Shown here in pieces: positions 1 through 33,500 of a stretch of DNA of 64,000 nt. Each line of letters begins with the position of its first letter. The first letter of the stretch is position 1. The stretch is from Owenia fusiformis (lineage: Eukaryota). The translations under genes were made by a program, and so were the position numbers. The notes below the pieces were generated by a model. The model worked only from the letters and a program-made list of their open reading frames with translations. It did not search any database and had not been told where the DNA came from. The DNA is taken from the NCBI GenBank assembly GCA_903813345.2, contig CAIIXF020000001.1, positions 3,286,001 to 3,350,000 on the forward strand. The letters run 5' to 3'.

Positions 1-1674
1 TTTGGAGATTCTGTGGTACAGTCTGATATGAAACAATGGCCGTTTAAAGTTACAAACGATGGGGGTAAACCTAAAATTGAGGTGGACTATAAAAATGAAC
101 TTAAAAAATTTACCCCTGAGGAAATCAGTTCAATGGTTTTGACAAAAATGAAGGAAACCGCAGAAGCATACTTGGGTCAAAAGGTCACTGAAGCAGTAAT
201 CACTGTCCCTGCTTATTTCAATGACTCTCAGAGACAGGCTACTAAGGATGCTGGCCACATTGCAGGGCTGAACGTCAAGCGTATTGTAAACGAGCCAACT
301 GCTGCAGCCCTTGCATATGGACTTGATAAAAATATGCGGGGAGAAAAGAATGTACTGATATTCGATCTTGGTGGTGGCACTTTTGATGTGTCAATCTTAA
401 CTATCGATGAGGGTTCAATGTTTGAAGTTCGAGCCACTGCAGGTGATACACATCTTGGTGGGGAAGACTTTGATATGAGAATGGTAAACCACTTTGTACA
501 AGAATTCAAACGCAAAAACAAGAAGGACATTTCCAACAACCCAAGGGCTATGAGACGTCTCCGAACAGCATGTGAGAGGGCAAAGCGCACATTGTCAAGT
601 AGTTCACAGGCAAGCATTGAAATAGACTCCCTATTTGAAGGCATCGACTTCTATACTTCAATCACAAGAGCAAGGTTTGAAGAACTCTGTGCTGATCTAT
701 TCCGTCAAACCTTAGAACCAGTTGAAAAAGCATTACAGGACGCCAAACTTGATAAATCACGTATTGATGATGTCGTATTGGTTGGTGGCTCTACAAGAGT
801 GCCAAAAATACAGAAATTATTGCAAGATTTCATGGGTGGGAAAGAACTCAATAAATCTATCAATCCAGATGAAGCAGTTGCATACGGTGCTGCAATCCAG
901 GCAGCCATCTTATCTGGGGTGAAGGATGAGAAAGTTCAGGATCTCTTGTTGGTTGACGTTGCACCACTCTCCATGGGAATCGAAACCGCTGGTGGTGTCA
1001 TGACAAAAATAATTGAAAGAAACACTCGCATCCCAACAAAGAATGCTCAAACTTTTACCACATATTCCGACAACCAGCCAGGAGTTAGTATCCAAGTGTT
1101 TGAGGGAGAGCGTGCAATGACGAAGGACAACAATCTTCTTGGACAATTTGAACTGTCTGGTATACCTCCAGCTCCGAGGGGTGTTCCAAAAATAGAAGTC
1201 ACATTTGACATTGACGCCAATGGAATTCTCCATGTAACAGCCAAAGATGAAAGCACAGGTAAATCAAACAATATCCGTATCACAAACGACAAAGGCAGGC
1301 TCTCCAAAGAGGACATTGAAAAAATGGTTAATGATGCCAAAAAATATGAAAATGAGGACAATAAACAACGAGAGCGCGTAGCGGCAAGAAACAACTTGGA
1401 GGGTATGGCTTTCAACTATAAAACTGCTGCAACTGAAAATGAGGCCAAAATATCAGCTGATAATAAAGACATTGTATTGAATAAGTGTAAAGACATACTT
1501 TCTTGGATAGACAACAACAGTCTGGCAGAGAAAGAAGAATATGATGATAAATTAGAAGATCTCACTAAAACATGTTCTCCTGTAATGGCCAAGTTACATG
1601 GAGGAGCACCTAACCATGGTCAACAGGGAGGATCTTCTCATGCTGGCGGGCCAACTGTTGAAGAAGTTGATTAA
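1..1674 (+). CDS. HSP70: Heat shock protein 70, cytosolic inducible type; 5' end lies outside the window; no introns in the visible part
   Basis: Open frame from base 1 ([15 protein letters not shown]...) to TAA at 1672-1674. Hsp70 signatures [14 protein letters not shown] and [16 protein letters not shown]-terminal GPTVEEVD. No GGMP repeats, and the extra Ser in IDEGSMFEV is typical of inducible invertebrate Hsp70. The track's start at 13 is an internal GTG. Confidence 0.97.
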
Positions 1675-7267: not shown

Positions 7268-9613
7268 TCAACATTTTAATTCACTACCAAGTTCCTGCTC
7301 TTTTACATGTTCCGTTGATGGGGCCTCATTAGACATGGCCTTTAACTCCAGTTGGTCTAAACAGGACTGGATGTATTTCACTGTCTTTTTCCGTGCTTGT
7401 CGGATTTCATCTTGTCCATTTGATTCTACTAAATCCAATTTCAGTAAAGATCTAGTCAACATTTCTTCTAACATTTTATATTGTTTATCTTGTTTAGACC
7501 CTGTGAAGTCTTCAATCTGTGTTTGATACCCCATTGCCTCCGAGAGAACTTTCTCAATCGTCTCCATTGGGGTGAGTTTAGGTGCTGGAGAAGGGGACCT
7601 AGATCTTGGTTTCACATCCTCTGGTTTCTGAAGAAATGCACCTGACTTTGCTTCAGTAGGTTTAGCAGTTGGTTCAGCTGAGTATTGTTGTTGAGGTTGC
7701 TGAGGTCTTGACTGACGTTCAGGCTCGGGTGGATTTCCAGGTCCATGGGCTATGGGTATCTCCCAAGCTTTTTGCCCAGAATCTTTGCTTGGTTTAAACT
7801 CAGTCCTTCGCAATACAGGGCTTGCCTTTGGGCTACTATGCCGAGCTGTTTCTGAAAAACGTTGTGGGCTAGAACGATGAGGACTTCCTACAAATTGACG
7901 TGATGGATTTGAATGGTTAGTGTCCATGGGCTCAGATTGTTGTGGTCCCCAATTCTGTTGCTGAGGTGGCATTTGTTGAGGGCGTTCTTGATTATGGCCT
8001 GAACCTTCATGTACAATTGGTATCTGAACTCCATCTTGATGACCTGATGTCGCATGTGACTGAAAATATATAAAACAAAGATCAATATAAATGTATACAG
8101 TCTACAGAATAGGCAAAAATATGATCACATTCTGAAAAAAAATTAGCTTACTCAATCTATATAAAAGGTATTTAATTTCCAGCGAAATGCTATGAAGAAG
8201 TAAATATATGAATCTGCATATGTTACAAAGTAATATTTACCATCTACTCTACCCTTGATTAAATTTCCACTGATTTAAACATTTGGGTGACCATTTAGCG
8301 TATCGAAGTAATAGTAAATTCCTGCTCTAGACAGCAAATTTGAATCAACATTATACATCTCAGTGGGATAGCGTGAGTACTTTGTGAGTGTATGATACAG
8401 TGAGAGAACTGAATGAGCTTTGAGGGGGGTTCTCCCCCAAGAAAATTACAAAACAAAATTGCATTTGAAGCATTCTGGGGCATTTTAAAAACGAAATTCA
8501 GACTACTATGGACTAATAAAATGTAAATTATTGGCCATTTTTATGGGTTCGCTCCCCCCCTTCCGGTCAGGTCAAGGAAACTTTTAACTTCTGGTCAAGA
8601 TTTTAATTACACTAAATTTAGGAACTTTCCAAACAGTTTCGGCCTTTTAAATCCTGTGTAATATTTTGCAATATCGTTCAGTTTACTTATGCCATGCTCA
8701 GTTTGTCCCGATTTTCTCTAAATTTAATGTTCTCAGTGGTCAAGCAGGTGACCTCACTTGACCCTGACGTCACTGATCACTGTTGACCAATCAGTGCGCA
8801 GTAGACCAGACCCATACATCGCTATCGCTCTCGTTTTATTTGAACAGATTCCAATTTGCTGCTACAATATTGCGTATACCACCAAGTACCAACCACCATA
8901 CTGTATTTGGGATTGACGCACATATTTCACACAACCCCAAGCACCTGCAGAGGGTGTCAGATATGTTGTTTTACACCGTTACACCGTAAAGATTTGTTGG
9001 ACCATTCTCGGATTCGATAAATAAAAGATTTTCTTATTTTCTACGACAATTTGGTTACTTTTAATTCGGGTAGGGAACTTTTTCCAATTGTGGTTAGCAA
9101 TATAGTTACACAACGACAGAATCTCAAAGATAATCATGCAATAAAATAATTTTGGAATGTGTTTTTGATCCTACCACCCCTATGAAAAAAATAAAAGCGC
9201 CCGCCTGGGTCGCCTGCCCGCCTGTAGGTGCATTCATGCAGCCTCTGGGTCTCTGAGGATCGTGTTGGCCCTAATGCAAGTCCATACGACAATCCTACGC
9301 ATTAGAGGCAGTGTTCACCGTCCGCCTGTACAATAGTCTACAGGTAACCGGAAAAAACTTGTTTAAGGCTGTAGTTCAGGAATATAGGCCCAATGTAAAC
9401 AATGTTAAATGAATAGAATTATATCTAAACTCAACTTACGTGTCGCCTTGGGTCTGACCAAGTCGTTTTCTGTTCACGATGGTTGACAAAAAATGGCCAA
9501 CCAGTTTGTGGGTCGATCAACATTTCCCAATCGGGTGGTAATGGTTCGTTATTCACTGGTGGTTGTGCTCTCTGTTGTCGCTGTTGATAATGGTGGTTAT
9601 TATGGTATGACAT
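7268..9613 (-). CDS. BAG3: BAG3/starvin-like Hsp70 co-chaperone (WW + two IPV-like motifs + Pro-rich region + BAG domain); exons 9613-9440 and 8059-7268
   Basis: Exon 1 encodes a WW domain ([32 protein letters not shown]) and ends at a phase-0 gtaagt donor. Acceptor ttttcag opens [18 protein letters not shown], in frame with the 7268-7972 ORF. That ORF contains WEIPIAH, RSRSPSP and a BAG domain ([38 protein letters not shown]). Confidence 0.9.
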
Positions 9614-15815: not shown

Positions 15816-16632
15816 CTACCTAAAATATGAATTTGCCATCAACTAGATAAATGGCAATATGAAAGCACCAGAGAAAATGAAAGAACGTTTTGACAGTTTG
15901 ACATGCAATTTAAATGAAAGAAATATAAAATATGTTTATATACAAACACTGAATGTAAATAATAAAATTACAATTCCATGCTATATCCCATAAAAAGTAA
16001 AATTCCAATAAAAGTCATTTAGTTCATTCCTTGTACACGTTGTAGATAAATATCTTATAAAATTCTGTATGAGGAAGATTTGTATTTAAATGAGTTATTA
16101 CATTCTTCCAAGCATAACTGAATAAATAAATTATATAATGATCCAATACTGGTATTCTAGATTTTTTCTGACCAAAAATGTACAAAACTGTACTTGATTG
16201 ACTTAACCTTCTGTTAATATCTAATAAAATAGGCAAACTTAGTTGCATATTTTCCAAATGGGCATGAAATAACAATTTTTTAATTCACATACCCATCTCA
16301 ATGACAATTTAATCTATTCTGACTTTGCATTGTTTTTACAGTATATGCACAAAATATGATAATGAACTGAGATGTACATGAAAAATAGTATGGCTGAATA
16401 ACTCCACCTTTCCCATGCCTGCTGCTACAAAGAGCTCATCATGTCACATGTGTAATTTTTAGTTCATTTTTTGTCCCATTCAAAATTTCAATTGTAATTG
16501 AGAATACATGAAGTGTATAATTATTCAATGCCAATAATAGTATACAATCTTTTGCAAATAAAATTACCCCCAAAATTCAGACATCATTTCAGACATTCCA
16601 CCCATAACCATGAAATAGTATAATTAATCTAA

Positions 16633-17291
16633 TTACAAAATATGCATACTTTGTTTTTCTCCCATCAATCCATCAATATATCCCGTGATTGGATCAATGT
16701 AGTGATGTTCCACTACAGGCTTCATATGTTCATTCATTACAGGCCTCATATGTTCATTTACAGGCCTAATATGTTCACTTACAGGCTTTAAATGTTCACT
16801 TACAGTTACATCATTCATTTCATCAACATTTAGATTCAATAACCTATCAACTTCTTGATTAAGAGCTTTAAGGTCCATTGTCTTTACCCATTTGATTTCC
16901 ATACCTTTGTGCCGATTTCTGCAGTGTTTACGACAATTTCCCCCAGTTTTACATGTAAAATTACAATAGAAACACTTGTAAGGACGAGCCTCTTTATGGA
17001 CATGCATTACACGAATATGAGTTTTCAAATGACTTAGAACACTTGCTTTTAAGCCACATATGGGGCATTGCAAAGTTTTCTCTTTGTGAATCCACTTGAT
17101 GTGTCCTTTAAGATTGTGATCAGAGCTGAATGCCATGCCACAAGCATCACAGACATGTTCTTTAATACCAAGATGACTGTCCATATGCTCCTTGAATCGC
17201 CGCTTTCTCTCTGTAGCGTATTTACATAAGTTACATTCGTACACGATTTGGGTCTCCTTGAGCTTAATGCGATGTTTTGCAAACATATGAT
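16633..17291 (-). CDS. BTB-ZF alternative terminal exon T3
   Basis: Acceptor ttttgcAG|ATCAT, phase 1: (N)HMFAKHRIKLKETQIVYECNLC... with 4 fingers and a PV(S/N)EH repeat tail; stop at 16633. Confidence 0.85.
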
Positions 17292-20200
17292 CTGCAAAAT
17301 GGAGATAAACATGATTTATATATAATAATTATCATAAAGATTAACAAGAGCATCTCCATTCTGCAGAAGTCATAATGTTCCTAAAATGTGCACCATTATA
17401 TTTTTATTCTGTCCCATGATACACATTATGCTCAGTACTCCAGAAGATGATTTTTGTTGAAAATTTTGTTGAAAAAGAAAGAAAACTTGATAAAATTTAT
17501 AACAATCTCTAGTGTCTTTAAAATATTGTCATGGGAAAAAATAAATATACAATGTTTATGCCAAATGTGTAAGTTACAGCGCATGAAAATTCTCAATCTA
17601 AAGCCCATTGCATCCATTGGAGGCTATAAATAAATATAGGGAATTACAACCTTTAGTCCTTCAGCCCACATTCAATAGAAATTCTCAACATTAAAATATA
17701 TAATCACCTAGCTACATCGCAATATTACTACCTGGTAGTTACAGTAAAATAACATCACCGGGCGACAGGAAAATAATATCACCTACTATTCATTGGTAAT
17801 TTCACTTTTGGTGAGATTCACGGCAGTTGTTTGCAACATTTGTGGTTCTTCTATGGGGTCAACTTTGACCCATTTGACTTTGAGACCCTTGTGTTTAATA
17901 TGGCTGTGATTGGCTATATTGTTGCTAAGTGCACATCGATGGTCACAATAGAAACATTTGTAAGGTTTAACACCTTTATGAGTGTGTTGCAAGCGTATGT
18001 GCTTTTTCATATATTTCGGGTCAGCTGCCATGTGGTTACAATAGAGACATTTTATATCTTTTTCACCGTGAACTCGCCGAACATGTTTTTTGAGTTCAGC
18101 ACCTTCTATGAACATTTTCCCACATATTGAGCAAATATGGTCTCTTTCATTTGTGTGATATTTCACATGACGCTTTAAACGTGACGTCAAATCAGTCACA
18201 TATGTACAATGGGGGCACTTGAAAACATGGTGCTTCTTGCGTGTTGTTTCACCATGTAATGCAAACATGTGACCTGCAATGAAAGGAAAGTGGTACTTTG
18301 TTATTCATTCTGTAATGCATGACTGTAGTACAGGCATGAAGGGAAACAATTTAATCTCATAGCATTTGAACATAAGTACCACTTCCCTTTTATTGCAGTT
18401 TATGTCTTAGTTATCATGTTCAGTGACCTGTTTCCTATCATACCTCAAATACAGTCCTCATTGTTGCTTTATTTATTACGTATATTACATCCAACAGGAA
18501 ATATTTTACAGCAAAATCTGTATAACACAAACTTTAAAAATCTCAATGATGTTGGTGTTTTGAAATACACCTGTGCTGTCGACAGTGGGCTTACAAACAT
18601 AACCACTGAATGAAATAAACAGATTACAGGGGTTTTACCACCAGAGCTATGATTTACAGATTTTACAGTATATCGTTAAAACCATGCACTCTCAATGAAC
18701 AGACGAACACATCTTAGTTTAAATGTATACTATTATTATTAGTATTCTTTCGTTTTATACACAACTATTAAAACATGACATGAATCAAAACAAGGAAGAA
18801 TGGTAATATGCGACTCCTAATTTATTAACACATAAGTCAATCATGTTTTATGCCAAGAATGGGGCCTTTGCATATAGTGCCAGTTTGAGCCCGACATGCC
18901 AGGGGCTTGCAATGGAGGTGATGGGATTCTATTGGTGCTCGCAAGTGAAGGATCATCATCATGAGTTATAACTGATGGTTTCTCGGCCGAGAATGAATCA
19001 CCAACTTTTAAACCAATACTGTCAATAGCCATCGTCATATTTTCTTGATTCTTTTGAATATCATTGCCCTTAACCATTGATTTAACTTCATTGTCTTCTT
19101 CCCCAATAGGGAATATTGATGACCTTCCACCCGAGAATGATCCACTTGGCTTAATAACAATACTACTTTCAAGACTTTCTTGAGTTTTGTCTGTGATTTT
19201 GATCCACCTAACCTCTTCATTTTTGTGGCGATTCATGCAATGTTTGCGACAATTCCCAGATGTTGCACATACAAAATTACAATAAAAACACTTATATGGT
19301 TTGTGATTTCTATGAGTGTGCATGATTTTGACATGGTCTTTCAAATGGGTAGTATCATTGGTCACATAATTGCAAAAGTCACAAGTCAGGTTTTTTGGGG
19401 TATGTTTCCATTTTTTATGCTTTCGAAGGGTACGTATTGATATGAACATTTGTCCACAGATATCACAGCTGTACTCTTTGATGCCTCTGTGAGACCTTTG
19501 GTGGTCCTCAAACCTCTGTCGGCGTTCACACGCAAATCCGCAAATCTCACACTCGAAAATAATCATAGTTTGACTCAAAACAATATGGTGAAGAGCAAAC
19601 ATGTGACCTGGAATTTCAAACAAGTTACAATCATTAATACAACGGAGTTTTTATCACTCTGAGCTTCATCTGAAAAATAAAATCTACAAATAAAAGAAAT
19701 CTTAAAAATGAAGAAATATGTGTATGTCTCATCAGTCTCCTCAAAAAAGTGTGAGTTTTTGGTAACCTTGGTAAATGTTCAGTAGTAATGACTAATTCAA
19801 GAGATACTTAAAGGCCCCAGGTAAAATTTACTCCAAAGTATAACATACAGGGTGTCAAATAAGTCCTGTCCCCCATGCTACAGCTTAAACCTTAATAGAT
19901 GGTACCTAGTGTGATATACCATTGGAAAGATCATCCAAAGTTATGTAAAATTACCAACTCTCAAGTATTTTGGATGAAATTCACCTATATTTTCATGATG
20001 TCCTTCATAGTGAGTGTACCCTCAGCTTTTATTGCGTCAAAATGAGAAGGATATGACCTCATAAATATGTCAAAAAGTTAACCTTTTTCGCATTCCACCT
20101 GTTACAAAAAGGTTTTCACCACTTTCCTTGCACCTCTGTTTTCTACACATCTAGCCCTATCCAGAAATAGGTTTAATTTATTGCCATTTACATATGTTGT

Positions 20201-23200
20201 CATCCTTAGGTCCTTTGACTTTTATTATACCCGATTGTTATAATCCTGCCAAATACACCAATTTGCCATGTTTTGAGGCCTATTGACCACAATTTATAAA
20301 ATGTAAAAATTGTGATATTGATTGACATGTATCAGATTTACACCAATCAACGTAGGTTTTGGCTGTAGAGGGGGGGACTTATTTGACACCTTAAAATTGT
20401 ACATCCTAAAATTTACTCCAAACCATGACATTTATTCCTAATTTATATTTTAAGAAAAGATATCAAAGCTTATCCTCATAACACCAATTTTTTTAATGAA
20501 AACAGCAGTTAACTATATTCTGATTTGTGAATAGATAAAGATGAAAAGAAATAGAGGTCATTTTTGCAACTATTACCAGAGAAGGAGACAGTTTTTAGAT
20601 AGGCCTAATAGAGATTATTTCCCTGGCAAAACAGTGTACTTCAGTCCTTTTCAAGCAAAATTCTCTTTAAGCAGATAATTAATTAATCCCCAGGGGCCTT
20701 AATAAGTGGATCACCACCTACTATTAATGTCCAAACAAAAACTTACTCTGGTAGTTTCCCTTGTCTGCTGTAGCATAGCCACAATGTGAGCAGACATGTG
20801 TTTTGGCCCCATGACGTGCCATGTGAGTCTTCAGTTCAGCTTCCTCCCCATAGGATGCCCCACATTGGTCACACATATATGGGCGAATGCCACGATGGAT
20901 TTTGTTCATATGCTTCTCGAGATATCTACAACATTTAAACAGAATATGTTGCCAAAAATTTCAAATACATGGATACCAACATTACTTAATTTTTTACTAA
21001 CAAATTTAACTGTTTAAAATACAGTACAGTAGAACCGGTGTAAGTGGAACACCCTTGGGACAAAAAAAGTGTTCCACTTGGGAGGTGTTCCACTTATAGA
21101 GGCTCATTAACATGGAGCAGATAGGCCATGGGACTTTAAAACACTGTTTCACTTGTGAAGTGTTCCACTTATAGAGGTGTTCCACTTAGCAGGGTCTACT
21201 GTACTTTAATGCATTAAATAATCTTCAAGATCCACCTATTACTTTATTCTCTTGTTTTTACAGTATAAGCTTAATATCTGGGTATAATTGATCATTTTAT
21301 TTATAAGATAGACTTACAGTTCTGTCTTTAATTTTTTTCCACACTCTAAGCAAGTGAACATTTTTCCAGGCATGTGTTTCTGAGCATGCTTCTTCAATGT
21401 ATACTTCTGGGGAGTCTTATAGTTGCAACCAGGTTCAGGACACTCAAATACCTATAAGACAATACAATACAATTTGGGATAAGAAACAAAGAACACTGAT
21501 TTTTTAAAATGGTTTTCAGAATACTGTTGATATTGAGAAATTGGTATTTTTATAAGACTTTAGTATAGTACATGGATAGAGCTTAGAACAATGACCAAAA
21601 TATATTAAAAGAGAAAAAATTATAAACATGTGAGAAATTTTAAGTCTCCTCCTCAACAGGGAGGTTTGATTTAAGTTGAAGCAATAAATATAAGTTACCT
21701 GTAAATCTTCCGATTCTATACCATGTAAGGAGAACTCATGGTGTTTAACATGGTATTTACTGGAGAATGTCTTGTTGCACATTGTACAGGAGTAGGCCTT
21801 CATTCGAATCTGATGTTTACGTGTCATGTGATTCGTTACTTGGGACTCTAAACAGCTGGTGTAAGGACACCTCTGGCAGCTGTGCATCACATCTGGATGA
21901 CAGTCTTTATAATGTTCCTTGAGGTTTGTTTTCCCGATGCATTCAAATACACAGCCAGCTTCTTCACATTTCTGTCCTCCTGATATCCCGTTAAAGTCCA
22001 CGCCATGAATTTCCCTACGATGTACCCCTAAATGCTGTCTCTTGAGGAATGTTTTGGGGCAATCGTTGCATTTATATGGTTTTTCTGTTCCATCATAAGC
22101 AGGGATCTGGGCAATTCCATGATTCGCTGCTAAGTGAGAACGCAACTTTGTTCGTTTTGTGAACAATTCATGGCACTCTGTACACACAAAAGGTGTCTTG
22201 AAATGTTGGTTTACCTTTTCTGACCATTTATCAGCCAAATTATCTGGAACGTAATGTATACCTTTCATATGATCCTTCATATATTTCTTGTCACTGAATG
22301 ACTTTTTGCAATATTTACATGGGAATGGTTTTAGCATAATTTCAGAGTGTCTTTGTGAAATGTGTACTGCCAGGACTTTTTCATTTAGGGTTCTATGTGG
22401 ACAAAAGTAACATTTGTAGTAGTGGGGTTTACTCCTCTTCCTCCCCCGTTCTCTCCTCGTTCTAGATTTCTTCGGAATCTCCTTGTGCTTTAAATGCTCA
22501 TGTACTTTCAGGTGAAAGAAGCTCATAAAGGTTGGGAGTTTGGGACATTTTGTACATTTCACAAGGCGTCTGTGCACCTTAGTACAATGTTGTTTGAGGG
22601 ACGTGTGGTATGCGAATGCACCAAGGCAGATATTGCACTTTGGTGGTGGGCCTTCACTGACTGCAAGAGCTACTTGCGTCTGTCTCAGAGCCCTGGCTAA
22701 TAACAACCTACACCTGACACTCTGCCTGTAGACAAACTTGTGTTCTTGCTGGATGTGAAGTTTCACTGTGGCAGCGTGTGGGAACCCTTTATCGCAGTAG
22801 CTACACATGAATGGTCGAGGAAGGGGTTTAGGTTTTAGAAACTGAATTTGCGGGAGTTTGTCCCATTGTTTATATTTAGGCTTTATATTCTCATCTAATT
22901 TCTTTATCTTGATTTTGAGGGTTTTCAGCTTTGGCTTAGCTTTTGATGAACCTTTTGATTTCTTCCCTGTATAATGAGACACCATTTCAAATTCTGCTTG
23001 TTGGTCAACCTTCCTTGGACGACCACGCTTCCGTTTGGATTTGACTGGCTCGACAGGGGTCAAATCAGAAAGGGGCATCCAATCATTGTCACTAAAGTGA
23101 TCCTGCTCATTGTAAGTATCATTCATATCTGGTTCTGCCTCACTGAACACCTCTTGCTTGATGGCAATTTTTGATTTCGGGGTAAGGTCACTTCTTGGGG

Positions 23201-24324
23201 GGTGTGAGGATTGGGGACTTGATGGTTGGGGCTGCCCACTAAAAGGGATGGAAGGATATTCTTGGGTGGTCTGTGTAGAGGCAACTGACATCTCTATTAT
23301 CTTGGCTATTGAAGACTTTCTCTAAAATAAAAAAGTAATAATAATTTTTCAAATTGATTTTTCGAGATACTCAACACTGGGAGCATATTTATTTACACTT
23401 TTGGTGCAGGGTAAATTCAAATATTCTTCTAAACAGAATGCGAAAATTGCTTCAGTGCGAGGAATTCTATTTATATATCTGTTATTCATTTCATCATCAA
23501 CTATGTTAAATATATATCTGATTTTAATATGAAATGAATTCAGAAATGCATTAAAATGAATGTAATACCTGCTCTACATCACTAACAGCAGCACTCTCAG
23601 TCAGGACAGCTTGTTGTGGGAAGACAGGGCCTTCAGTTGTCTTACGAACATACTCCTCACATAGCTTCTTAGCAGCCTGAATGTCCAGTTGTTCAGCTGT
23701 GTTCTTCACTCCCCATACATTAGACTTGTTAAGCATCATTGAGCCAGTGTAGAGGAAATCCAAGAGCTGGTTAACATGGGTTGGGTTGAGGCCTAAGGGG
23801 AAATAAAAATCAATACATAAGTGATATTTTATACATGTATTATGTATAGACCATAGAGTGTGAATATGCAATTTTCTCATCACTTTCTCAAAAATGTTGA
23901 CATGTTTTATTGTAGCATTTAAAAATGTATCCAGTGAAAAACATTGTCTTTGAGAGTAAATATTTAGTCAATTGCTTTGCAAAAATATTCATTTTTATAG
24001 ACAGTACTTACTCATCCCTCAACAAAAATTTACTTTATTTTCACACAGGTGTTGACAATATTGGACAGCCCCCTTCCCCATAATCCTTTTAATTTTGTAT
24101 TCTTTACCTGGCAAATCATATCTGTTGACGAAGAGCATGCCTTGATCAAGAAGTGTTTTGAAATAACCAGACCCACTGACTAGCATTACTTTGTGCAGAT
24201 GGAATTCCACATAGCCACCAATTACAAGCGTGATGTCACAAAGAAGTTGACGCTTGTACAGGCTGTTCACTACAGGGAGCAACTCTGTTGGGAAGTCTGA
24301 TGATGTCATTAACTGCTCATCCAT
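16633..24324 (-). CDS. BTB/POZ + AT-hook + multi-C2H2 zinc-finger protein (ZBTB-like). Constant exons 24324-24108, 23792-23569, 23321-21699, 21451-21318, 20925-20747, then one of three alternative terminal exons
   Basis: BTB motifs LCDITLVIGG..FHLHKVMLVSGSGYF and LLDFLYTGSM..AEQLDI; AT-hook KRKRGRPRK; more than 10 C2H2 fingers. All introns are GT-AG with consistent phases (1,0,0,2,1). Confidence 0.9.
17786..18273 (-). CDS. BTB-ZF alternative terminal exon T2
   Basis: Acceptor ttgcAG|GTCAC, phase 1: (S)HMFALHGETTRKKHHVFKCPHC... with 4 fingers; stop at 17786; AATAAA at 17408-17403. Confidence 0.85.
18841..19607 (-). CDS. BTB-ZF alternative terminal exon T1 (completes the split finger, adds 4 C2H2 fingers and a ~110-aa tail)
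   Basis: Acceptor ttccAG|GTCAC, phase 1: (S)HMFALHHIVLSQTMIIFECEIC...; stop at 18841; AATAAA at 18826-18821. Confidence 0.85.
19848..20390. mobile_element. Degenerate Tc1/mariner-type MITE in the intron before T1
   Basis: (ta)cagggtgtcaaataagtcc...cccc versus ggggggacttatttgacacc. Confidence 0.55.
21027..21201. mobile_element. pogo/Tigger-like MITE; relatives at 62286-63143 and 38255-38315
   Basis: TA|CAGTAGAACC...GGTCTACTG|TA with repeated gtgttccactt motifs. Confidence 0.8.
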
Positions 24325-27569: not shown

Positions 27570-30500
27570 ATGGAATACATACAACAGCAAAACAATGCCA
27601 GTCTTGGCACAATGTAAGTTAATTTTTACGTTTCATTGGTATTAAAGAAGGGTGTATTCCAAAATATGGAGGGTGTGTGTGACACATTTTTTCTCAGTCA
27701 CTGAGTCAGTGTGCTGTGATAGAAAAATGAAAAAATTGTATTTTTTCGTGCCCATCATTTTATTTTACATCTTTATGCATGCGTATTATCAGTTATCACA
27801 CGTTTCAGCATGATACAGGAAATATTCCACGAAAGGTAATATTGTATCATCCACGAAAGCGAAGCTTGAGTCACCCTATGCAGACAGAGCCTGTGGGAAA
27901 TATTGGGTGGGGCGCAAATGAGTGGAGGGTGCGGAGCTAACGGTCATTTTTGAATTTAAAATTGGGATATTTCTGAAACTAAGCCGTTTTGGGACTTCAA
28001 ATATACCAAGATATGTGTATTTGACACCAAATATCAATAAAATTGTGAAAATAGTAGTGCAATTCATTTTATAGCGACGCAGTATGCCTTAAACATTTCC
28101 CAGACCTATATATTTTGAGACTATCCTTTTAATACTGCGTCCCCAGCATTCATAAAAAATGGTGTTCAAGATACACTACCCATGCAAATTATTTTTGCAT
28201 CTTGGAAGCCAGGCAGTATTTTTATAAAATCACACAGATACTGCCTGGCTTCCAAGATGCAAAAACAATTTGTATAGATAGTGAACATTGAACACCATTT
28301 TTTATGAATGCTGGGGACTCAGTATTAAAAGGATAATTTCAAAATATATAGGTCTGGGAAAGGTTTAAGGCACACTGCGTCGCTATAGAATGAATTGCGC
28401 TACTATTTTCACAATTGTATTGATATTTGGTGTCAAATACACATATCTTGGTATATTTGAAGTCCCAAAACGGCTTAGTTTCTGAAATATCCCAAATTTA
28501 AATTCAAAAATGACCGTTAGCTCCGCACCCTCCGCTCATTTGCTCCGCACCCAATATTTCCCACAGGCTCTGTCTGCATAGGGTGTTGAGTGGTGATACA
28601 TTGTTACCCAAGTGGAATATTTCCTGTATCACATAAGCTGAAACGTGTTATCATCATCATCATCATTTGGTACTGTAGCTGTTAGGCTTGTGTGCCTGTT
28701 GTCGCTAAGCTCTTTTTATATTTATCAGCTAAAAACTGATCGTGATATTTTAATCATTTGAACCACCTGGTCCAAGACACTTTAAGTTTGACAGGTGAGC
28801 TAGGTTAAGCATAGACCCCAAAGATCAGACTTGCAGACTGGTCTTCTTGTTGCAGTACTTCAAGGGTGCGTGCTGTTGTTCCGCCATGCTATACTATGGT
28901 GTAGTGTTTTTCTGACCAGAATTTGTCGAGCCTCGTTTTGAAGGTGGTGATAGAGTCTGAACTTATGACGTTCTCTGGTAGACTATTCCAGTCACTGATT
29001 ACTCTCAAGCTGAAAGTGTTGCTTCTAAGTGAAGTTTTGCAGTGTCTCTTGAATAGTTTTTTTGAATGGCCTCTCGTGGTGGAAGTGGATGACTGGGAAA
29101 ATAAATCAGGGTTTAAGTTGACTAGTCCATTGAATATCTTATAAACTTCTATCATATCACCTCTTTTGCGTCTATAATGTAAAGAGTGTAATTTCAGTTC
29201 CTTCAATCTATAACTATATGCTAGGTCCTTTAGTCTATAAATTAATTTAGTTGTTCTTCTTTGGATTTTTTCAAGCTTTCTTTCATCTGTGATAAATCTA
29301 GGGTGCCATATAAAGTTTCCGTAGTCCAAAACTAGTCTAATTATAGCTTTATATACTTTGATAATACTTTGTTTGTCTATATGTCTAAAAGTCCTTTTAA
29401 TCAGGCCTAGTTTGCTGTTCGCTTTGTTGGCTATTCTTGATATATGACTGTGAAATTTTAATTCATTATCAATTGTGATACCCAAGTCATTTTCCTCTGT
29501 AGTCTCTTGTATTGGTGTGTTGTCTAATGAATATGGTTGATGTACATTTCTGGCTCCTCCTAAGTGAAGTACTTTACATTTGTTGGAATTAAATTTCATT
29601 TGCCAGGTTTCTGTCCATTTAGATAGTGAGTCTATATCATCTTGAAGTGACTTTCTTTGCTCTTGTGTTAAGCTCTCTCCATACAACTTAGTATCATCTG
29701 CGAATATTTTGATTGTATTTTTAACTACTTTGGGGGCGTCGTTGATGTAGATAATGAAGAGACAAGGTCCGATCACGGTTCCTTGAGGCAATCCAGATGA
29801 TACTGGGGCTTCTTCTGACATGTCTCCATTTACTCGGACTCTCTGGGTTCTTCCTGATAGAAAATTAGCTATCCAGCGTTGTAAATTTCCTTGAATTCCA
29901 TATGAATCCAGTTTTTTGATGAGCCTCTGGTGCGGGACAGTGTGATGACGATTTTATCACATGTCTAGGAATTTTGAAGCATTTTGATTTGGTCAGTTAT
30001 GGATTGTGTTCAGAACCCTGTACTCCCGGTAACTACAGTATTATAACTTTTGATTTTGCTTTGAAACAATATGACGTCATACCGTTGTATTCGTACTTGT
30101 TTGTGAAATAGTATGTCGTCATATTGTTTTCCTTAGCTAGGAAGTGATATAACCAGTGACATCACATCATTGCTATTGACTCCGTAGTGATACAGCCCAC
30201 TGTATCACATGAAAATTAGCCAGGTGTCTTGTGATACGGAATATACATCATCACAACTGACCAATCAAAATGTTTAGACACTCCTAATCATGTGATAATA
30301 TGCATTACTACAATCATCAAATTCATATCCTGAGTATATATGTAGTAATAAAAGTTCATTTGTAAAAAAGCATTTTGAAACAGTTCAGCTACCGGCAGGG
30401 CCAGGGAGTGGCGTATGATGTAACATCTGCAAATTAAATATCCGCCGCATCTGTTTGACCGTGCACCTCTTCTTTCTTCAGATTATGCTGTAAGTGTGGA

Positions 30501-33500
30501 GTTTCAATAGCTCCAAATCCTGCCAACATGTGTGTAGGCTGTCTACAGTCAGAGGTCGACATCACAGAAGGAATTCCTAAGTCTGCTACACTTTACTTCT
30601 GTCGTAACTGTGAGAGGTAAAGCACAAATTTGTAATAGTTTACTTAAATTATGGGATAACATTGATTCACAATTTTTGGAGTTTATTTTCAGAACCTCCA
30701 GCGTTCATTTCAAGATGATTATCACTTGTATGACCATGTTACATATAATATATATGTAAATGGGAAGGATGTTCTAGAGTCATTAGATAGTCACACAGAT
30801 TCACAACTGTAAACTTTCTTTTCATTAGGTATCTTCAACCTCCAAGTCAATGGATATCTGCAGCCCTAGAATCAAGGGAACTTCTAGCAGTCTGCTTGAA
30901 GAAATTAAAATCTGGTTTGAGTAAAGTTCGTCTGGTGGATGCTGGCTTTATCTGGACTGAGCCACATTCTAAAAGAATCAAAATGAAACTAGCTGTTCAG
31001 AAAGAGGTAAACAACTGAAGGAAAAATTGAAAAATGAATGTGGAATAATTAGATGAAAGTTAGATGAAGGTTCCTTGTCTCTGAAACAGATCCATCTATC
31101 AGGCAATATCCAGTAAACATAGCCCAACACTAAGTAGTGAACCAACAAAATTGTTGAATCCAAGAATGACATCAGATTTTATTTCTAGGTGAATAATGGT
31201 GCAATTCTTCAGCAAAATTTTGTCGTGGAGTTCACTGTAAACAATCAGATGTGTAATGACTGCCATAAAGTGGAAGCAAAAGACTATTGGAAAGCAGTAG
31301 TACAGCTACGGCAGAAGGTTAGTATGTTCAAAAGATTCAGAAGATACTGTTATAATCTCCAGAGATTTGCAACTATACAAGAATCATTGATATCTTTGCA
31401 GGTTAACTGTCCTCAAAGTATCTTCTGGTTCTTTGTTTAATTGATTTAAGGTAAAACCTGTCTAATCTGAACGCTACTTCATCTAGCCAGAATTATTTAA
31501 ATTAGTAGGTTTTCACATTTATGGTGTCTTACTATGTTAGTCAGTTGTTAACTAAATTGGGACCAAGATAAAGTGTTCACATTTAGAGGTGTTCGGATTA
31601 GAGAGTTGTTTGATTTTGCTGTACATGATTCTGTTCCTGTATTTCAGGCCTCTCACAAGAAGACTTTCTTCTATCTTGAGCAGATGATGTTGAAACACCA
31701 GGCACATAGTAACACCGTTAATATCAAGGAAAACTATGGTAGGTCATTATTGTGTAAACACCATGAAAGAACCTCAGCAAAACTGTGTGATTTTGTAATG
31801 TATCCTGTAGGTCTTTGAAGTGCAAACACCATCAAAGAACCACGGCAAAATTTTGTGATTTTGTCAGTATCCTAAAACATATCCTAGAATTGTCATATGT
31901 TGTCCAAAAATAAGTTTATGTTTTTAAGTTTCTAGTCAAGTTCCTACTTTCTAACAGCCCTGAATTACCGTCCATATTGTCCTTTTCAGTTCTGACATCA
32001 TATCTTCATTGGTATGTCAATGCTCACACATATGTTTGGAATGCTATACATATTACAATGTATTATATACATCTAACAATTGAGGTCTTCATGTTTACTT
32101 GTTTATTTCAGAGGGTTTGGATTTCTTCTTCGCTCAGAAGAATGATGCAAGAAAGTTGACAGAGTTCATACAGCAAGTGGTACCATGCAGGTAGGAACTC
32201 AAAAGTTCAGATCTGATCACACTTGCAATGTATTCCCAATTTCATATATTACTGTTCAATTTCAAATGAGAAAAAATCAAGAAACATCGGATATAATTTT
32301 ATTTGAATACCATTGAATTAACAAATATAGTTTTACTTGTCAGATCATATTTCTATATGTATAAAATATGTATAAGATAAAAAGAACTTCTTGTGATTTT
32401 TTGTGGTATATCTGGTCACACACAGCAGTTAACATCCTCTTAATAAAAACTTGTAGGGCCTATTTGTCAAAAGTCACAAGATATCCTGACACCTCTACTT
32501 CTAAAATAGAGATTATTTCCTTAACACATACAAATAAAACTGTATGTTTCCAGGTATAAAACTGCACAAGAGCTAGTATCACACGATGTGCACAACAATA
32601 CCTATGTATACAAATATACATACTCAGTAGAGATTGTGCCTATATGTAAAGTAAGTATATTTAAAGTATCACTGTATGCATATTTCAATTAAGGGACATG
32701 TTAGGTCTCTGTACAAAATCCAAGTTAATTAGCCAAAACCAGTCATTTTGCTTCCTAATACTCCTCAGGATTTCTAATCAGGAACTGAAGAAAAACATTT
32801 ACATAGCATTATAGAAATTAGCATATTACAACATTTACATTCATTGATCCTAATCGCATTTCACATTGTTACAGTCTGTTATGTTATGTTGCAGGACAAC
32901 ATTGTGTGTCTGTCAACCAAGATGGCCCAGTCACTTGGGAACATCAGTCAGATATGTATCTGCCATAGAGTCACACAGACTCTGCATATCATAGACCCTA
33001 ACACACTGCAGGGTAAGTATTTAGTGTCAAGAACAGGCCTGACAAAGACAAGGAAAACCAAAATCATGTTAGCTGACCTGGAAAAGTCATAGCATTTCAA
33101 AATTATTTTGTTTGTCAATGCCAGGTAAAATGAGATTGGTCAGTGAAATTTCAGTTTATTTCATTATTCAAGTCAAGGAAATTTCAGTTTATTTCATTTT
33201 TCAAGTCAAGGAAATTTCAGTTTATTTCATTATTCAAGTCAAGGAAATTTCAGTTTATTTCATTTTTCAAGTCAAGGAAATTTCGGTTTATATCAATTTT
33301 CAAGTCAAGGAAATTTCGGTTTATTTCAGTTTTCAAGTCAGGGAAATTTCGGTTTATTTCAATTTTCAAGTCAGGGAAATTTCAGTTTATTTCAGTTTTC
33401 AAGTTCATGTATTTTGAATAGATGCCTCACTGTACCTCTATATTACATAATAATTAACTCCTCCACAAATTGATGAAAGACTTCAATATGGATATCAAAA

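Follow-up and report, generated by a model that had tools for sequence, protein, structure and literature searches.

The window analysed here is a stretch of 64,000 nucleotides of the Owenia fusiformis genome (contig CAIIXF020000001.1, positions 3,286,001 to 3,350,000 of the forward strand), and all positions given below are counted from its first letter. On the minus strand lies a gene encoding a BTB domain and C2H2 zinc fingers, as indicated by matches to the Pfam BTB and C2H2 families; the gene next to it has a 100% match to a protein of Owenia fusiformis. Its last common exon (20747-20925, minus strand) encodes the first half of a zinc finger that is split by the exon junction; the acceptor of this exon at 20925 is supported by 31, 24 and 25 junction reads in three RNA runs, and its 5' splice site reads CAGA/GUAAGU, with the intron starting at 20746. 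To judge from sequence, this single donor at 20747 can probably be spliced to any of three paralogous 3'-terminal cassettes on the same strand, T1, T2 and T3, and the split finger would be completed by whichever of them joins. T1 spans 18841-19607, T2 spans 17786-18273 (stop codon at 17788-17786) and T3, a paralogous zinc-finger cassette, spans 16633-17291 (stop codon at 16635-16633); RNA depth was part of the evidence for T2 and T3. The reading frame of T2 opens with GUCACAUG immediately after the AG at 18275-18274, finishes the split finger and then encodes more C2H2 fingers. The acceptor of T1 is weak, with 10 pyrimidines in the 17 positions of its tract, against 13 to 14 of 17 in T2 and T3.

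The cassettes are 33-52% identical in amino acids and 35-45% identical at third codon positions, and their sequences mark them as old duplicates. When the T2 peptide was searched among longer proteins, the sole match was an Owenia protein of 847 amino acids encoded on another contig, with 40% identity, which by its sequence is a paralogue. The protein of the common exons returned only generic zinc-finger matches (21-26% identity), and in a scan of metagenome proteins 21 patterns were matched and none was confirmed; the pattern of the hairpin arm described below had no match in the metagenomes. Between T1 and T3 (positions 19607-17292) no sequence agrees with the donor consensus at 8 or more of its 9 positions, as would be expected if T1 and T2 are terminal exons. 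For the same reason we dropped the idea that the structures described below guard against cryptic donors.

Reads were taken from three stranded RNA runs labelled with this species and from one DNA run (X1). RNA depth over T1, T2 and T3 was 9-42, compared with 0-0.4 over the intron stretch 19649-19819. The interval between T1 and T2 was also present in RNA, at a depth of about 4.6-9.6 against approximately zero in the upstream intron, and the 5' arm of the T2 hairpin described below therefore sits in an extended 3' UTR of T1; the original prediction had placed it in the T1 3' UTR. Among the best-supported 15 of 100 junctions none joins 20747 to T1, T2 or T3. Use of the T2 acceptor is suggested by a rise in depth, from 6.5, 7.4 and 6.3 in the 171-nt bin holding the T2 hairpin (7.2, 9.6 and 4.1 in the bin upstream of it) to 9.3, 10.9 and 10.8 after the acceptor.

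Hairpins at the acceptors of T2 and T3

The inverted repeat that the original prediction described at the T2 acceptor, with one mismatch, one G-U pair and one bulge, is present as claimed. Its arms (18398-18374 and 18298-18274, minus strand) are 92% complementary over 25 positions and lie 75 nt apart; 24 of the 25 positions are paired, 23 by Watson-Crick pairs and one by G-U, with a single A.C mismatch, and beyond a 1-nt bulge the stem continues to reach 30 nt on one side and 29 nt on the other. The 5' or anti-acceptor arm (18374-18398; RNA 5'-CUGCAAUAAAAGGGAAGUGGUACUU-3'), which reaches 18369 past the bulge, contains the hexamer AAUAAA at 18394-18389, also as predicted. The 3' arm (18274-18298, extending to 18302) is the polypyrimidine tract of exon T2 together with its AG, at which the arm ends exactly, confirming the predicted identity of this arm. 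The 75-nt loop spans 18299-18373, and an outer helix pairs AGACAU (5' strand, 18402-18407) with the exon bases AUGUUU (18268-18263). A UAAC at about 18303-18300, read by eye, is a likely branch site.

Folding the minus strand from 18260 to 18410, a test proposed along with the prediction, gave a dG of -50.1 kcal/mol (z -6.38), and none of 200 shuffled sequences was as stable. Pair probabilities in the T2 stem were 0.89-1.00 whether the surrounding context was 300, 600 or 1000 nt, and across 18290-18274, which covers the polypyrimidine tract and AG, the probability of being unpaired was at most 0.10 at 16 of 17 nucleotides. Inverted repeats of this grade (25 nt, at most 2 mismatches, loop of at most 200 nt) occur five times in the window and never in any of 10 dinucleotide shuffles.

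The acceptor of T3 is likewise taken up by a hairpin of its own, formed by 17380-17351 with 17307-17281 (dG -34.9, z -6.4, none of 200 shuffles as stable) around a shorter loop of 43 nt. Its 5' arm (17351-17380, minus strand) reads GAACAU, AUGA and then UCUGCAGAAUGGAGAUG, and its 3' arm (17281-17307) runs from the polypyrimidine tract through the AG to the eleventh nucleotide of exon T3. At both T2 and T3, a stable helix thus takes in polypyrimidine tract and AG.

We compared acceptors by pairing the 22-mer of each with its upstream 250 nt, using 300 shuffles per site. The acceptors of T2 (-28.5, z -6.4) and T3 (-26.8, z -6.5) were both better paired than all 300 of their shuffles. No masking hairpin was found in the upstream 250 nt of the T1 acceptor (-12.1, z 0.0, 136 of 300 shuffles as good) or of the constitutive acceptor at 20925 (-10.8, z -0.8, 63 of 300). 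The two strands of the window together contain 331 acceptor-like sites; in their ranking T2 leads, followed by its mirror image and then by T3, and the best of the remaining sites reaches -23.2. Only 0.68% of arbitrary 22-mers (n = 10,620) reach -26.8, and by our own arithmetic the probability that at least two of three given sites do so is about 1.4e-4. We regard T2 and T3 as probably carrying a functional pair of hairpins that mask their 3' splice sites.

Detailed comparison of the two helices, anchored at the AG, covered 16 common positions, of which six are identical pairs, three show one-sided changes, six show two-sided changes that preserve the pair and one forms a pair in T3 but not in T2. 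In shifted registers just 6-10 of the 16 remain paired. The arms of T2 and T3 differ at 10 of the 16 positions, each fitting its own acceptor. It could be that the two hairpins arose independently, in which case the two-sided differences would not represent compensatory evolution.

Alternative readings of the hairpins

According to the original prediction, one stem would mask both a distal poly(A) signal of T1 and the acceptor of T2, thereby switching 3'-end formation and exon choice together and allowing read-through to T3. The part concerning the acceptor agrees with the burial of the T2 polypyrimidine tract and AG, but the coupling to polyadenylation is not supported. The hexamer does lie in the stem, where five of its six bases have a probability of at most 0.11 of being unpaired, and the RNA retained between T1 and T2 indicates that T1 transcripts read past the proximal AAUAAA of T1 (18821-18826, minus strand), just downstream of which RNA depth falls. 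Moreover, the sole mismatch of the stem, the A.C, is the fourth base of the hexamer, which would read AAUGAA without it; this could reflect selection for a signal, but a single G-to-A transition could also make the hexamer by chance. The equally strong T3 hairpin has neither AAUAAA nor AUUAAA in its arms (17380-17351 and 17307-17281), the nearest AAUAAA lying in the T2-T3 interval at 17408-17403, 22 nt upstream of the hairpin base. In addition, RNA depth (about 7, in 171-nt bins) shows no drop past the hexamer at 18389, staying steady across the predicted cleavage zone, and the molecule ends listed, beyond which there are 378 further ends, do not cluster near 18370. We consider joint control of the two signals by this stem quite unlikely and the AAUAAA within the T2 arm most likely incidental; a hexamer so strikingly placed in a stem can arise simply because an anti-acceptor arm is rich in purines.

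A further pairing at T2 bears on two more elaborate schemes. The segment A (18429-18456, minus strand) is complementary to A' (18348-18321), in the loop of the hairpin, with 22 of 28 positions in Watson-Crick pairs and a duplex energy of -30.5 kcal/mol; A:A' is interleaved with the main stem of T2, and the two are mutually exclusive. At T3 no such competitor helix was found (z -1.2, 35 of 300 shuffles as good). The T2 module might therefore be imagined as a two-state, co-transcriptional device in which A:A' forms first, leaving the anti-acceptor arm and AAUAAA in a loop, and the main stem, B:B', displaces it only after the acceptor has emerged, with a short timed interval during which poly(A) signal and acceptor are exposed; in this annelid gene family, tandem arrays of 3' cassettes would then follow an ancestral design rule, position-specific masking of acceptors, by which the choice of cassette is linked to the formation of 3' ends. 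Such a scheme seems to us improbable. Competition between a docking site and selectors, as in Dscam or PGRP-LC, with the local hairpins as the competing intra-intron state, could instead be read into the complementarity between A' and positions 20647-20613, 100-133 nt past the donor (-27 to -30 kcal/mol, matched by 0 of 150 and 6 of 200 shuffles). This match is, however, one marginal result in 18 arm-by-region tests, neither T1 (z 0.5) nor T3 (z -0.3) has a matching selector upstream, and near the donor no significant partner was found for any of the four hairpin arms, so that we give docking very little credence.

The hairpins could also be substrates of an activity specific for double strands (Drosha-like cleavage, ADAR editing or binding by a dsRNA-binding protein) rather than steric masks. 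Their stems measure 25-36 bp when the outer helices are included, and T>C, which would read as A>G on a gene of the minus strand, is the commonest class of difference, at 25, 29 and 19 places in the RNA runs against 13 in the DNA run. The T>C sites listed in the unique T1-T3 stretch are nevertheless near-fixed, present in the DNA contig too, or present in the DNA contig only, and look like polymorphisms. Rfam gave no match at E<=1 over 16000-21500, and typical pre-miRNAs are unlike hairpins with loops of 43 and 75 nt. No variant falls in a stem among those listed; the expectation, from 14 listed noncoding variants in 1061 nt, is 1.6 in the 118 nt of stem, and the deficit is not significant, with 141 further variants beyond those listed. 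A role as double-strand substrates is accordingly hard to credit.

Finally, the hairpins may be inert inverted repeats, either remnants of foldback or MITE-like elements or local template-switch duplications, that abut the acceptors by chance and are tolerated there. Local inverted repeats are indeed abundant in the window, with 45 pairs that are 20 nt or longer within 400 nt (the T2 pair is only 19th by length). Repeats of 28 nt with 22 or more matching positions number 30, against none in each of 6 shuffles, and the adjacent introns hold high-copy repeats. Membership of a multicopy MITE family, which had been named as a result that would speak against the prediction, is nonetheless not what we observed: a single contig of DNA run X1 spans 17770-19642 at a depth of 85.2, against 1e4-2e5 in nearby intronic repeats, making the region single-copy at the level of copies at least 92% alike, and the T2 arm sequence occurs only twice in the window. 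Nor is there a target-site duplication, the flanks being AAA and GUC, although an old duplication could have decayed. Descent of the hairpin from a direct repeat was rejected as well; the loop and the acceptor have only short words in common (TTTCCYTTCAT, TGCATTACA and CAGGTCAC), which is too little. Chance abutment is also at odds with the top rank of T2 and T3 among the 331 acceptor-like sites and with the differing arms of the two hairpins, each matched to its own acceptor. The exons have diverged anciently and yet the helices are paired at 24 of 25 and 16 of 16 positions. Because the cassettes are old duplicates, neutral arms would be expected to decay over that time, and the separate, equally significant hairpin at T3 argues for acceptor masking being a selected feature. 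Inert repeats are thus, in our view, an unlikely explanation.

Probable acceptor masking and the choice of cassette

We lean towards the reading that the hairpins at T2 and T3 tune the choice of cassette by masking acceptors rather than by controlling polyadenylation. The cassettes that are not first in line, T2 and T3, each have, 43-75 nt upstream, an inverted copy of their own acceptor (pyrimidine tract, AG and first exon bases), and once transcribed the acceptor can be captured in a hairpin of 25-27 bp. Provided that the hairpins fold in vivo, as we infer, capture would make the acceptors of T2 and T3, which are intrinsically the stronger ones, harder to reach for U2AF and U2 and leave a share for the weak, unmasked acceptor of T1. 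The ratio T1:T2:T3 would then be set by the ease with which the hairpins open, possibly affected by helicases, RNA-binding proteins, polymerase speed and temperature. RNA depth over T3 is 17-42 despite its hairpin, and this apparently heavy use implies that masking is at most partial, or that the hairpin could even help.

The arrangement resembles hairpins that sequester 3' splice sites, in that a stable local helix buries the AG of an alternative acceptor together with its pyrimidine tract. Kalmykova et al. (2021, PMC8052449) report that inactive and cryptic splice sites are obstructed by complementary regions, and that local structure tends to suppress the cryptic ones. Unlike such cases, the present locus, which is known from sequence and reads, has two paralogous terminal cassettes each with its own mask and a first cassette without one, and its helices extend 6-11 bases into the exon. 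Pan et al. (2018, PMC6191721) describe a 3' variable region where pairing within an intron competes with pairing between introns; RNA pairing is proposed there to bias cassette choice in Drosophila PGRP-LC, CG42235 and Pip and is linked to 3'-end formation. These genes also place tandem alternative 3' cassettes on one 5' splice site, and one docking site pairs with selectors upstream of each cassette in an activating manner (PMC6191721). At our locus, by contrast, no common docking site was found, pairing is local and inhibition would be expected.

A likeness also exists to the Drosophila BTB zinc-finger genes lola, fru, broad and mod(mdg4), which have alternative 3' zinc-finger exons, in that a common part with the BTB domain is followed by one 3' cassette, chosen from several, that encodes zinc fingers. 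The common part here is, unlike theirs, already many-fingered and the junction splits a finger; the comparison with those genes covered the Pfam BTB and C2H2 matches, and there is no evidence of trans-splicing here. With regard to polyadenylation, the 5' poly(A) hairpin of HIV-1 occludes a poly(A) signal. A switch between splicing and polyadenylation mediated by structure is known from Drosophila Nmnat, as cited in PMC8052449. The T2 hairpin is like these in holding AAUAAA within a stable stem and unlike them in that no use of the signal is seen in RNA reads and that the hexamer is not common to the T3 hairpin. A literature search found nothing on splicing of Owenia BTB zinc-finger genes among the 10 papers listed of 923 matching. 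Hairpins that mask acceptors are a known kind of structure, of which the pair at T2 and T3 is probably a new case.

Alternative splicing is known to be steered by RNA structure, and the cases worked out so far are, to our knowledge, mostly from insects, vertebrates and viruses. A compact and testable spiralian case would be provided by this locus, with three paralogous cassettes within 3 kb, and the comparison between paralogues, two cassettes with self-matched masks and one without, constitutes a built-in evolutionary replicate. If the masks do set the isoform ratio, the DNA-binding module of a multi-finger transcription factor would be under their control.

Architecture of the gene and its terminal cassettes

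Three minus-strand open frames of 269, 172 and 231 codons, measured from stop to stop, encode paralogous C2H2-finger blocks, here called T1 (18841-19607), T2 (17786-18273) and T3 (16633-17291); T1 and T3 are 52% identical and T2 is 33-37% identical to either. Upstream of them on the same strand the gene contains a BTB domain (23554-23967), a finger-rich exon of 601 codons and two small exons. The last common exon ends with CAGA/GUAAGU at an intron running from 20746, and its own constitutive acceptor at 20925 is confirmed, the three RNA runs giving 31, 24 and 25 split reads. A zinc finger is split by the junction: the common exon provides C-x2-C plus eleven further residues, and each T exon begins with two bases finishing the junction codon, followed by His-Met-Phe-Ala-x-His. 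Both finger cysteines are hence common, and every cassette has its own copy of the two histidines (HMFAxH) at its start. The junction codon (donor 20747; acceptors 19607, 18273 and 17291) encodes Ser on joining to T1 or T2 and Asn on joining to T3. Because each T frame continues to its own stop and the stretch from 19607 to 17292 is free of donor-like sites that match the consensus at 8 or more of 9 positions, the natural reading is that of three alternative terminal cassettes. An 847-aa Owenia protein encoded on another contig, the best match of T2 (40%), is the product of a paralogous gene. The neighbouring gene at 7268-8101 (minus strand) encodes a BAG-domain co-chaperone that matches a protein of Owenia fusiformis at 100% identity, this annelid being the most probable source of the window, and 6 kb away an uninterrupted HSP70-like frame (1-1674, plus strand) runs off the start of the window.

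Hairpins at the T2 and T3 acceptors

The T2 acceptor lies in one arm (18274-18298, B') of an inverted repeat whose other arm (18374-18398, B) is found upstream in the transcript, the arms being 25 nt each, 92% complementary and separated by 75 nt. The pair count (23 Watson-Crick pairs, one G-U and one A.C mismatch) and a local alignment, which extends the stem beyond a one-base bulge through AUGUU/AACA(A), agree with the stem of the original prediction, with its one mismatch, one G-U and one bulge. Folded as RNA, the minus strand of 18260-18410 reaches -50.1 kcal/mol (z = -6.38; 0 of 200 shuffles as stable), and stem pair probabilities were 0.89-1.00 in contexts of 300, 600 and 1000 nt. An outer helix of 6 bp pairs (A)GACAU with the exonic AUGUUU and has a 6-bp counterpart in the T3 hairpin. 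Repeats of this grade (25 nt, at most two mismatches, loop of at most 200 nt) were observed five times in the window versus none in each of 10 dinucleotide shuffles, so chance does not account for the T2 repeat. Nor is it one of a kind: the window has 45 local inverted repeats that reach 20 nt or more, among which it ranks 19th by length, longest first.

The fold predicts that T3 has the same device, an acceptor-masking hairpin (17380-17351 with 17307-17281; -34.9 kcal/mol, z = -6.38, 0 of 200 shuffles). Its upstream arm forms 17 contiguous pairs (17367-17351), taking in the pyrimidine tract and AG of T3 as well as the first base of the exon, and two more helices of 4 and 6 bp extend 11 nt into the exon. 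Folding 260 nt around each acceptor gave a mean probability of being unpaired, over the last 20 intron bases, of 0.06 for T2, 0.16 for T3 and 0.45 for T1. When the 22-mer of each acceptor was matched uniformly with its own upstream 250 nt, the best duplexes were -28.5 kcal/mol for T2 (z = -6.4; 0 of 300 dinucleotide shuffles as good), -26.8 for T3 (z = -6.5; 0/300), -12.1 for T1 (z = 0.0; 136/300) and -10.8 for the constitutive acceptor at 20925 (z = -0.8; 63/300). The two strands of the window together have 331 acceptor-like sites (YAG after at least 10 pyrimidines in 14); T2 is at the top of their ranking, followed by its mirror image and then by T3, and the fourth stands at -23.2. The level of -26.8 was reached by 0.68% of 10,620 arbitrary 22-mers, a rate from which the chance of at least two of the three named sites reaching it is about 1.4e-4. 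The pyrimidine tract is weakest at T1 (10/17, against 14 and 13 at the other two).

Aligning the T2 and T3 helices at the AG gave 16 common positions, at which six pairs are the same, three have changed on one side and six on both sides while still paired, and the last is mismatched in T2 (A.C); with the register moved by 1-3 bases, just 6-10 of the 16 remained paired. The two exons share 53% of their nucleotides, or 45% when third positions are taken alone, and no meaningful similarity between T2 and T3 was found in the loops or in the stretches upstream of the arms. Judging from this comparison, either compensatory change may have preserved an ancestral hairpin or a mask may have been gained separately by each cassette, and both origins would point to selection on pairing and not on sequence. 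As T1, the closest paralogue of T3, has no mask, the presence of a mask goes with a non-first place in the array and not with relatedness. Short words shared with the T2 acceptor and the start of its exon lie upstream, namely CAGGTCAC (18423-18430), TTTCCYTTCAT (18333-18343) and TGCATTACA (18311-18319), the last two keeping a spacing of 55-56 nt; they may represent a decayed local duplication.

RNA evidence and alternative readings of the stem

Three raw RNA-seq runs from a single study with the same species label (X22, X23 and X24, depths in that order) are strand-specific, the first mate lying on the plus strand in nearly all pairs, as fits a minus-strand gene. Mean depth on this gene was 15-24 in common exons (20675-21016, 21359-21500), 0.4/0/0 in the intron (19649-19819), 11-23 in T1 (18794-19648), 4.1-9.6 between T1 and T2 (18281-18793), 8-21 in T2 (17768-18280), 4.6-18 between T2 and T3 (17426-17767) and 17-42 in T3 (16571-17254). 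Since the upstream intron is essentially empty, unspliced precursor cannot account for the reads between T1 and T2, which must come from T1-spliced RNAs extending beyond the proximal AAUAAA at 18826; processed RNA therefore carries the T2 hairpin sequence. At the T2 acceptor depth goes up from 6.5/7.4/6.3 to 9.3/10.9/10.8, and the increase into T3 is steeper, as fits some direct splicing to each. None of the best 15 of 100 junction rows, apparently dominated by high-copy repeats at 21017-21187, joins 20747 to a T exon, so that splicing into T2 and T3 is inferred from depth. The stretch 18500-18680 is highly polymorphic (reads with 2-8 differences each; a 6-nt deletion at 18550 in one run), and the 92% likeness cut-off may have lowered the depth recorded there. 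Between 16400 and 21500 the commonest difference class in the RNA runs was T>C, that is A>G on the minus-strand gene (25, 29 and 19 places versus 13 in the DNA run); polymorphism or editing is possible, most single sites being outside those listed.

The original prediction was that one stem could mask both the T2 acceptor and a T1 polyadenylation signal, thereby acting as a switch. Its acceptor half is supported, and the AAUAAA does lie in the upstream arm, at 18394-18389, but the polyadenylation half is probably wrong and we regard the coupled switch as unlikely. The perfect complement of the acceptor would be AAUGAA, the hexamer arising only through the single A.C mismatch of the stem; the T3 hairpin arms contain no AAUAAA, the nearest (17408-17403) being 22 nt upstream of the hairpin base. 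Moreover, depth in the hairpin bin was 0.8-1.5 times that of the upstream bin instead of about half, and no end cluster near 18370 appeared among the loose ends listed (378 further rows lie beyond these). With bins of 171 nt, a depth of about 7 and this partial listing, minor use of the hexamer is compatible with the data. Another reading takes the T2 module as a two-state device. A second helix joins A (18456-18429) to A' (18348-18321, inside the hairpin loop) with 22 of 28 Watson-Crick pairs and a duplex of -30.5 kcal/mol, a grade found 30 times in the window versus none in each of 6 shuffles. It is interleaved with B:B', an order that two intact insertions cannot produce, and the two helices are mutually exclusive in a nested fold. 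The reading is based on folds of the growing transcript, in which A:A' (22 pairs) is present once transcription is at 18320-18299 and is supplanted by B:B' once at least 14 acceptor-arm bases exist. T3 has no counterpart of A:A' (z = -1.2), and we give a two-state device little credence.

Membership in a multicopy MITE family, which the original prediction named as evidence against itself, was not found. In the DNA run X1 depth was exactly 85.2 in every bin of 18110-19477, the depth of a single contig of 1,873 nt spanning 17770-19642; at a likeness of 92% or above the hairpin therefore has no second match among the contigs of that assembly. Between this contig and the window there are 13 differences, all of them outside 18246-18505. 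The window has just two copies of the arm, and no target-site duplication was found in the flanking sequence, which also argues against a mobile element. In contrast, 19820-20332 and 21017-21358 reach a summed X1 contig depth of about 11,000-196,000 versus about 50-100 elsewhere. These are high-copy intronic repeats with RNA reads on both strands, hundreds of which continue into unlike sequence. Elsewhere, at 27872-28585 and 28889-29953, a 348-nt inverted repeat (94% complementary, 18 nt apart) adjoins a reverse-transcriptase frame (Pfam RVT_1) and is probably retroelement debris, and an open frame of a repeated unit (…KEISVYF…) at 33073-33417 (plus strand) indicates a tandem DNA repeat.

Proposed steric attenuation of distal acceptors

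We lean, by a modest degree, toward steric attenuation of the distal acceptors by their hairpins. The anti-acceptor arm is transcribed before the acceptor emerges, so that tract and AG could be captured in the hairpin ahead of U2AF binding; the weak, unmasked T1 acceptor would gain share, and the output ratio would vary with hairpin opening. Obstruction of splice sites by local structure is a principle described in PMC8052449, applied here to a tandem array of 3' cassettes of the general type treated by Pan et al. 2018 (PMC6191721). Unlike in that system, no shared docking site was found in 18 arm-by-region tests; the one notable result, 20647-20613 against A' (equalled by 0 of 150 shuffles and then by 6 of 200), had no comparable match for T1 or T3. 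Acceptor masking is a known kind of mechanism, of which the T2/T3 pair may be a new case, and a paralogous, position-specific pair of hairpins is of more interest than a lone one.
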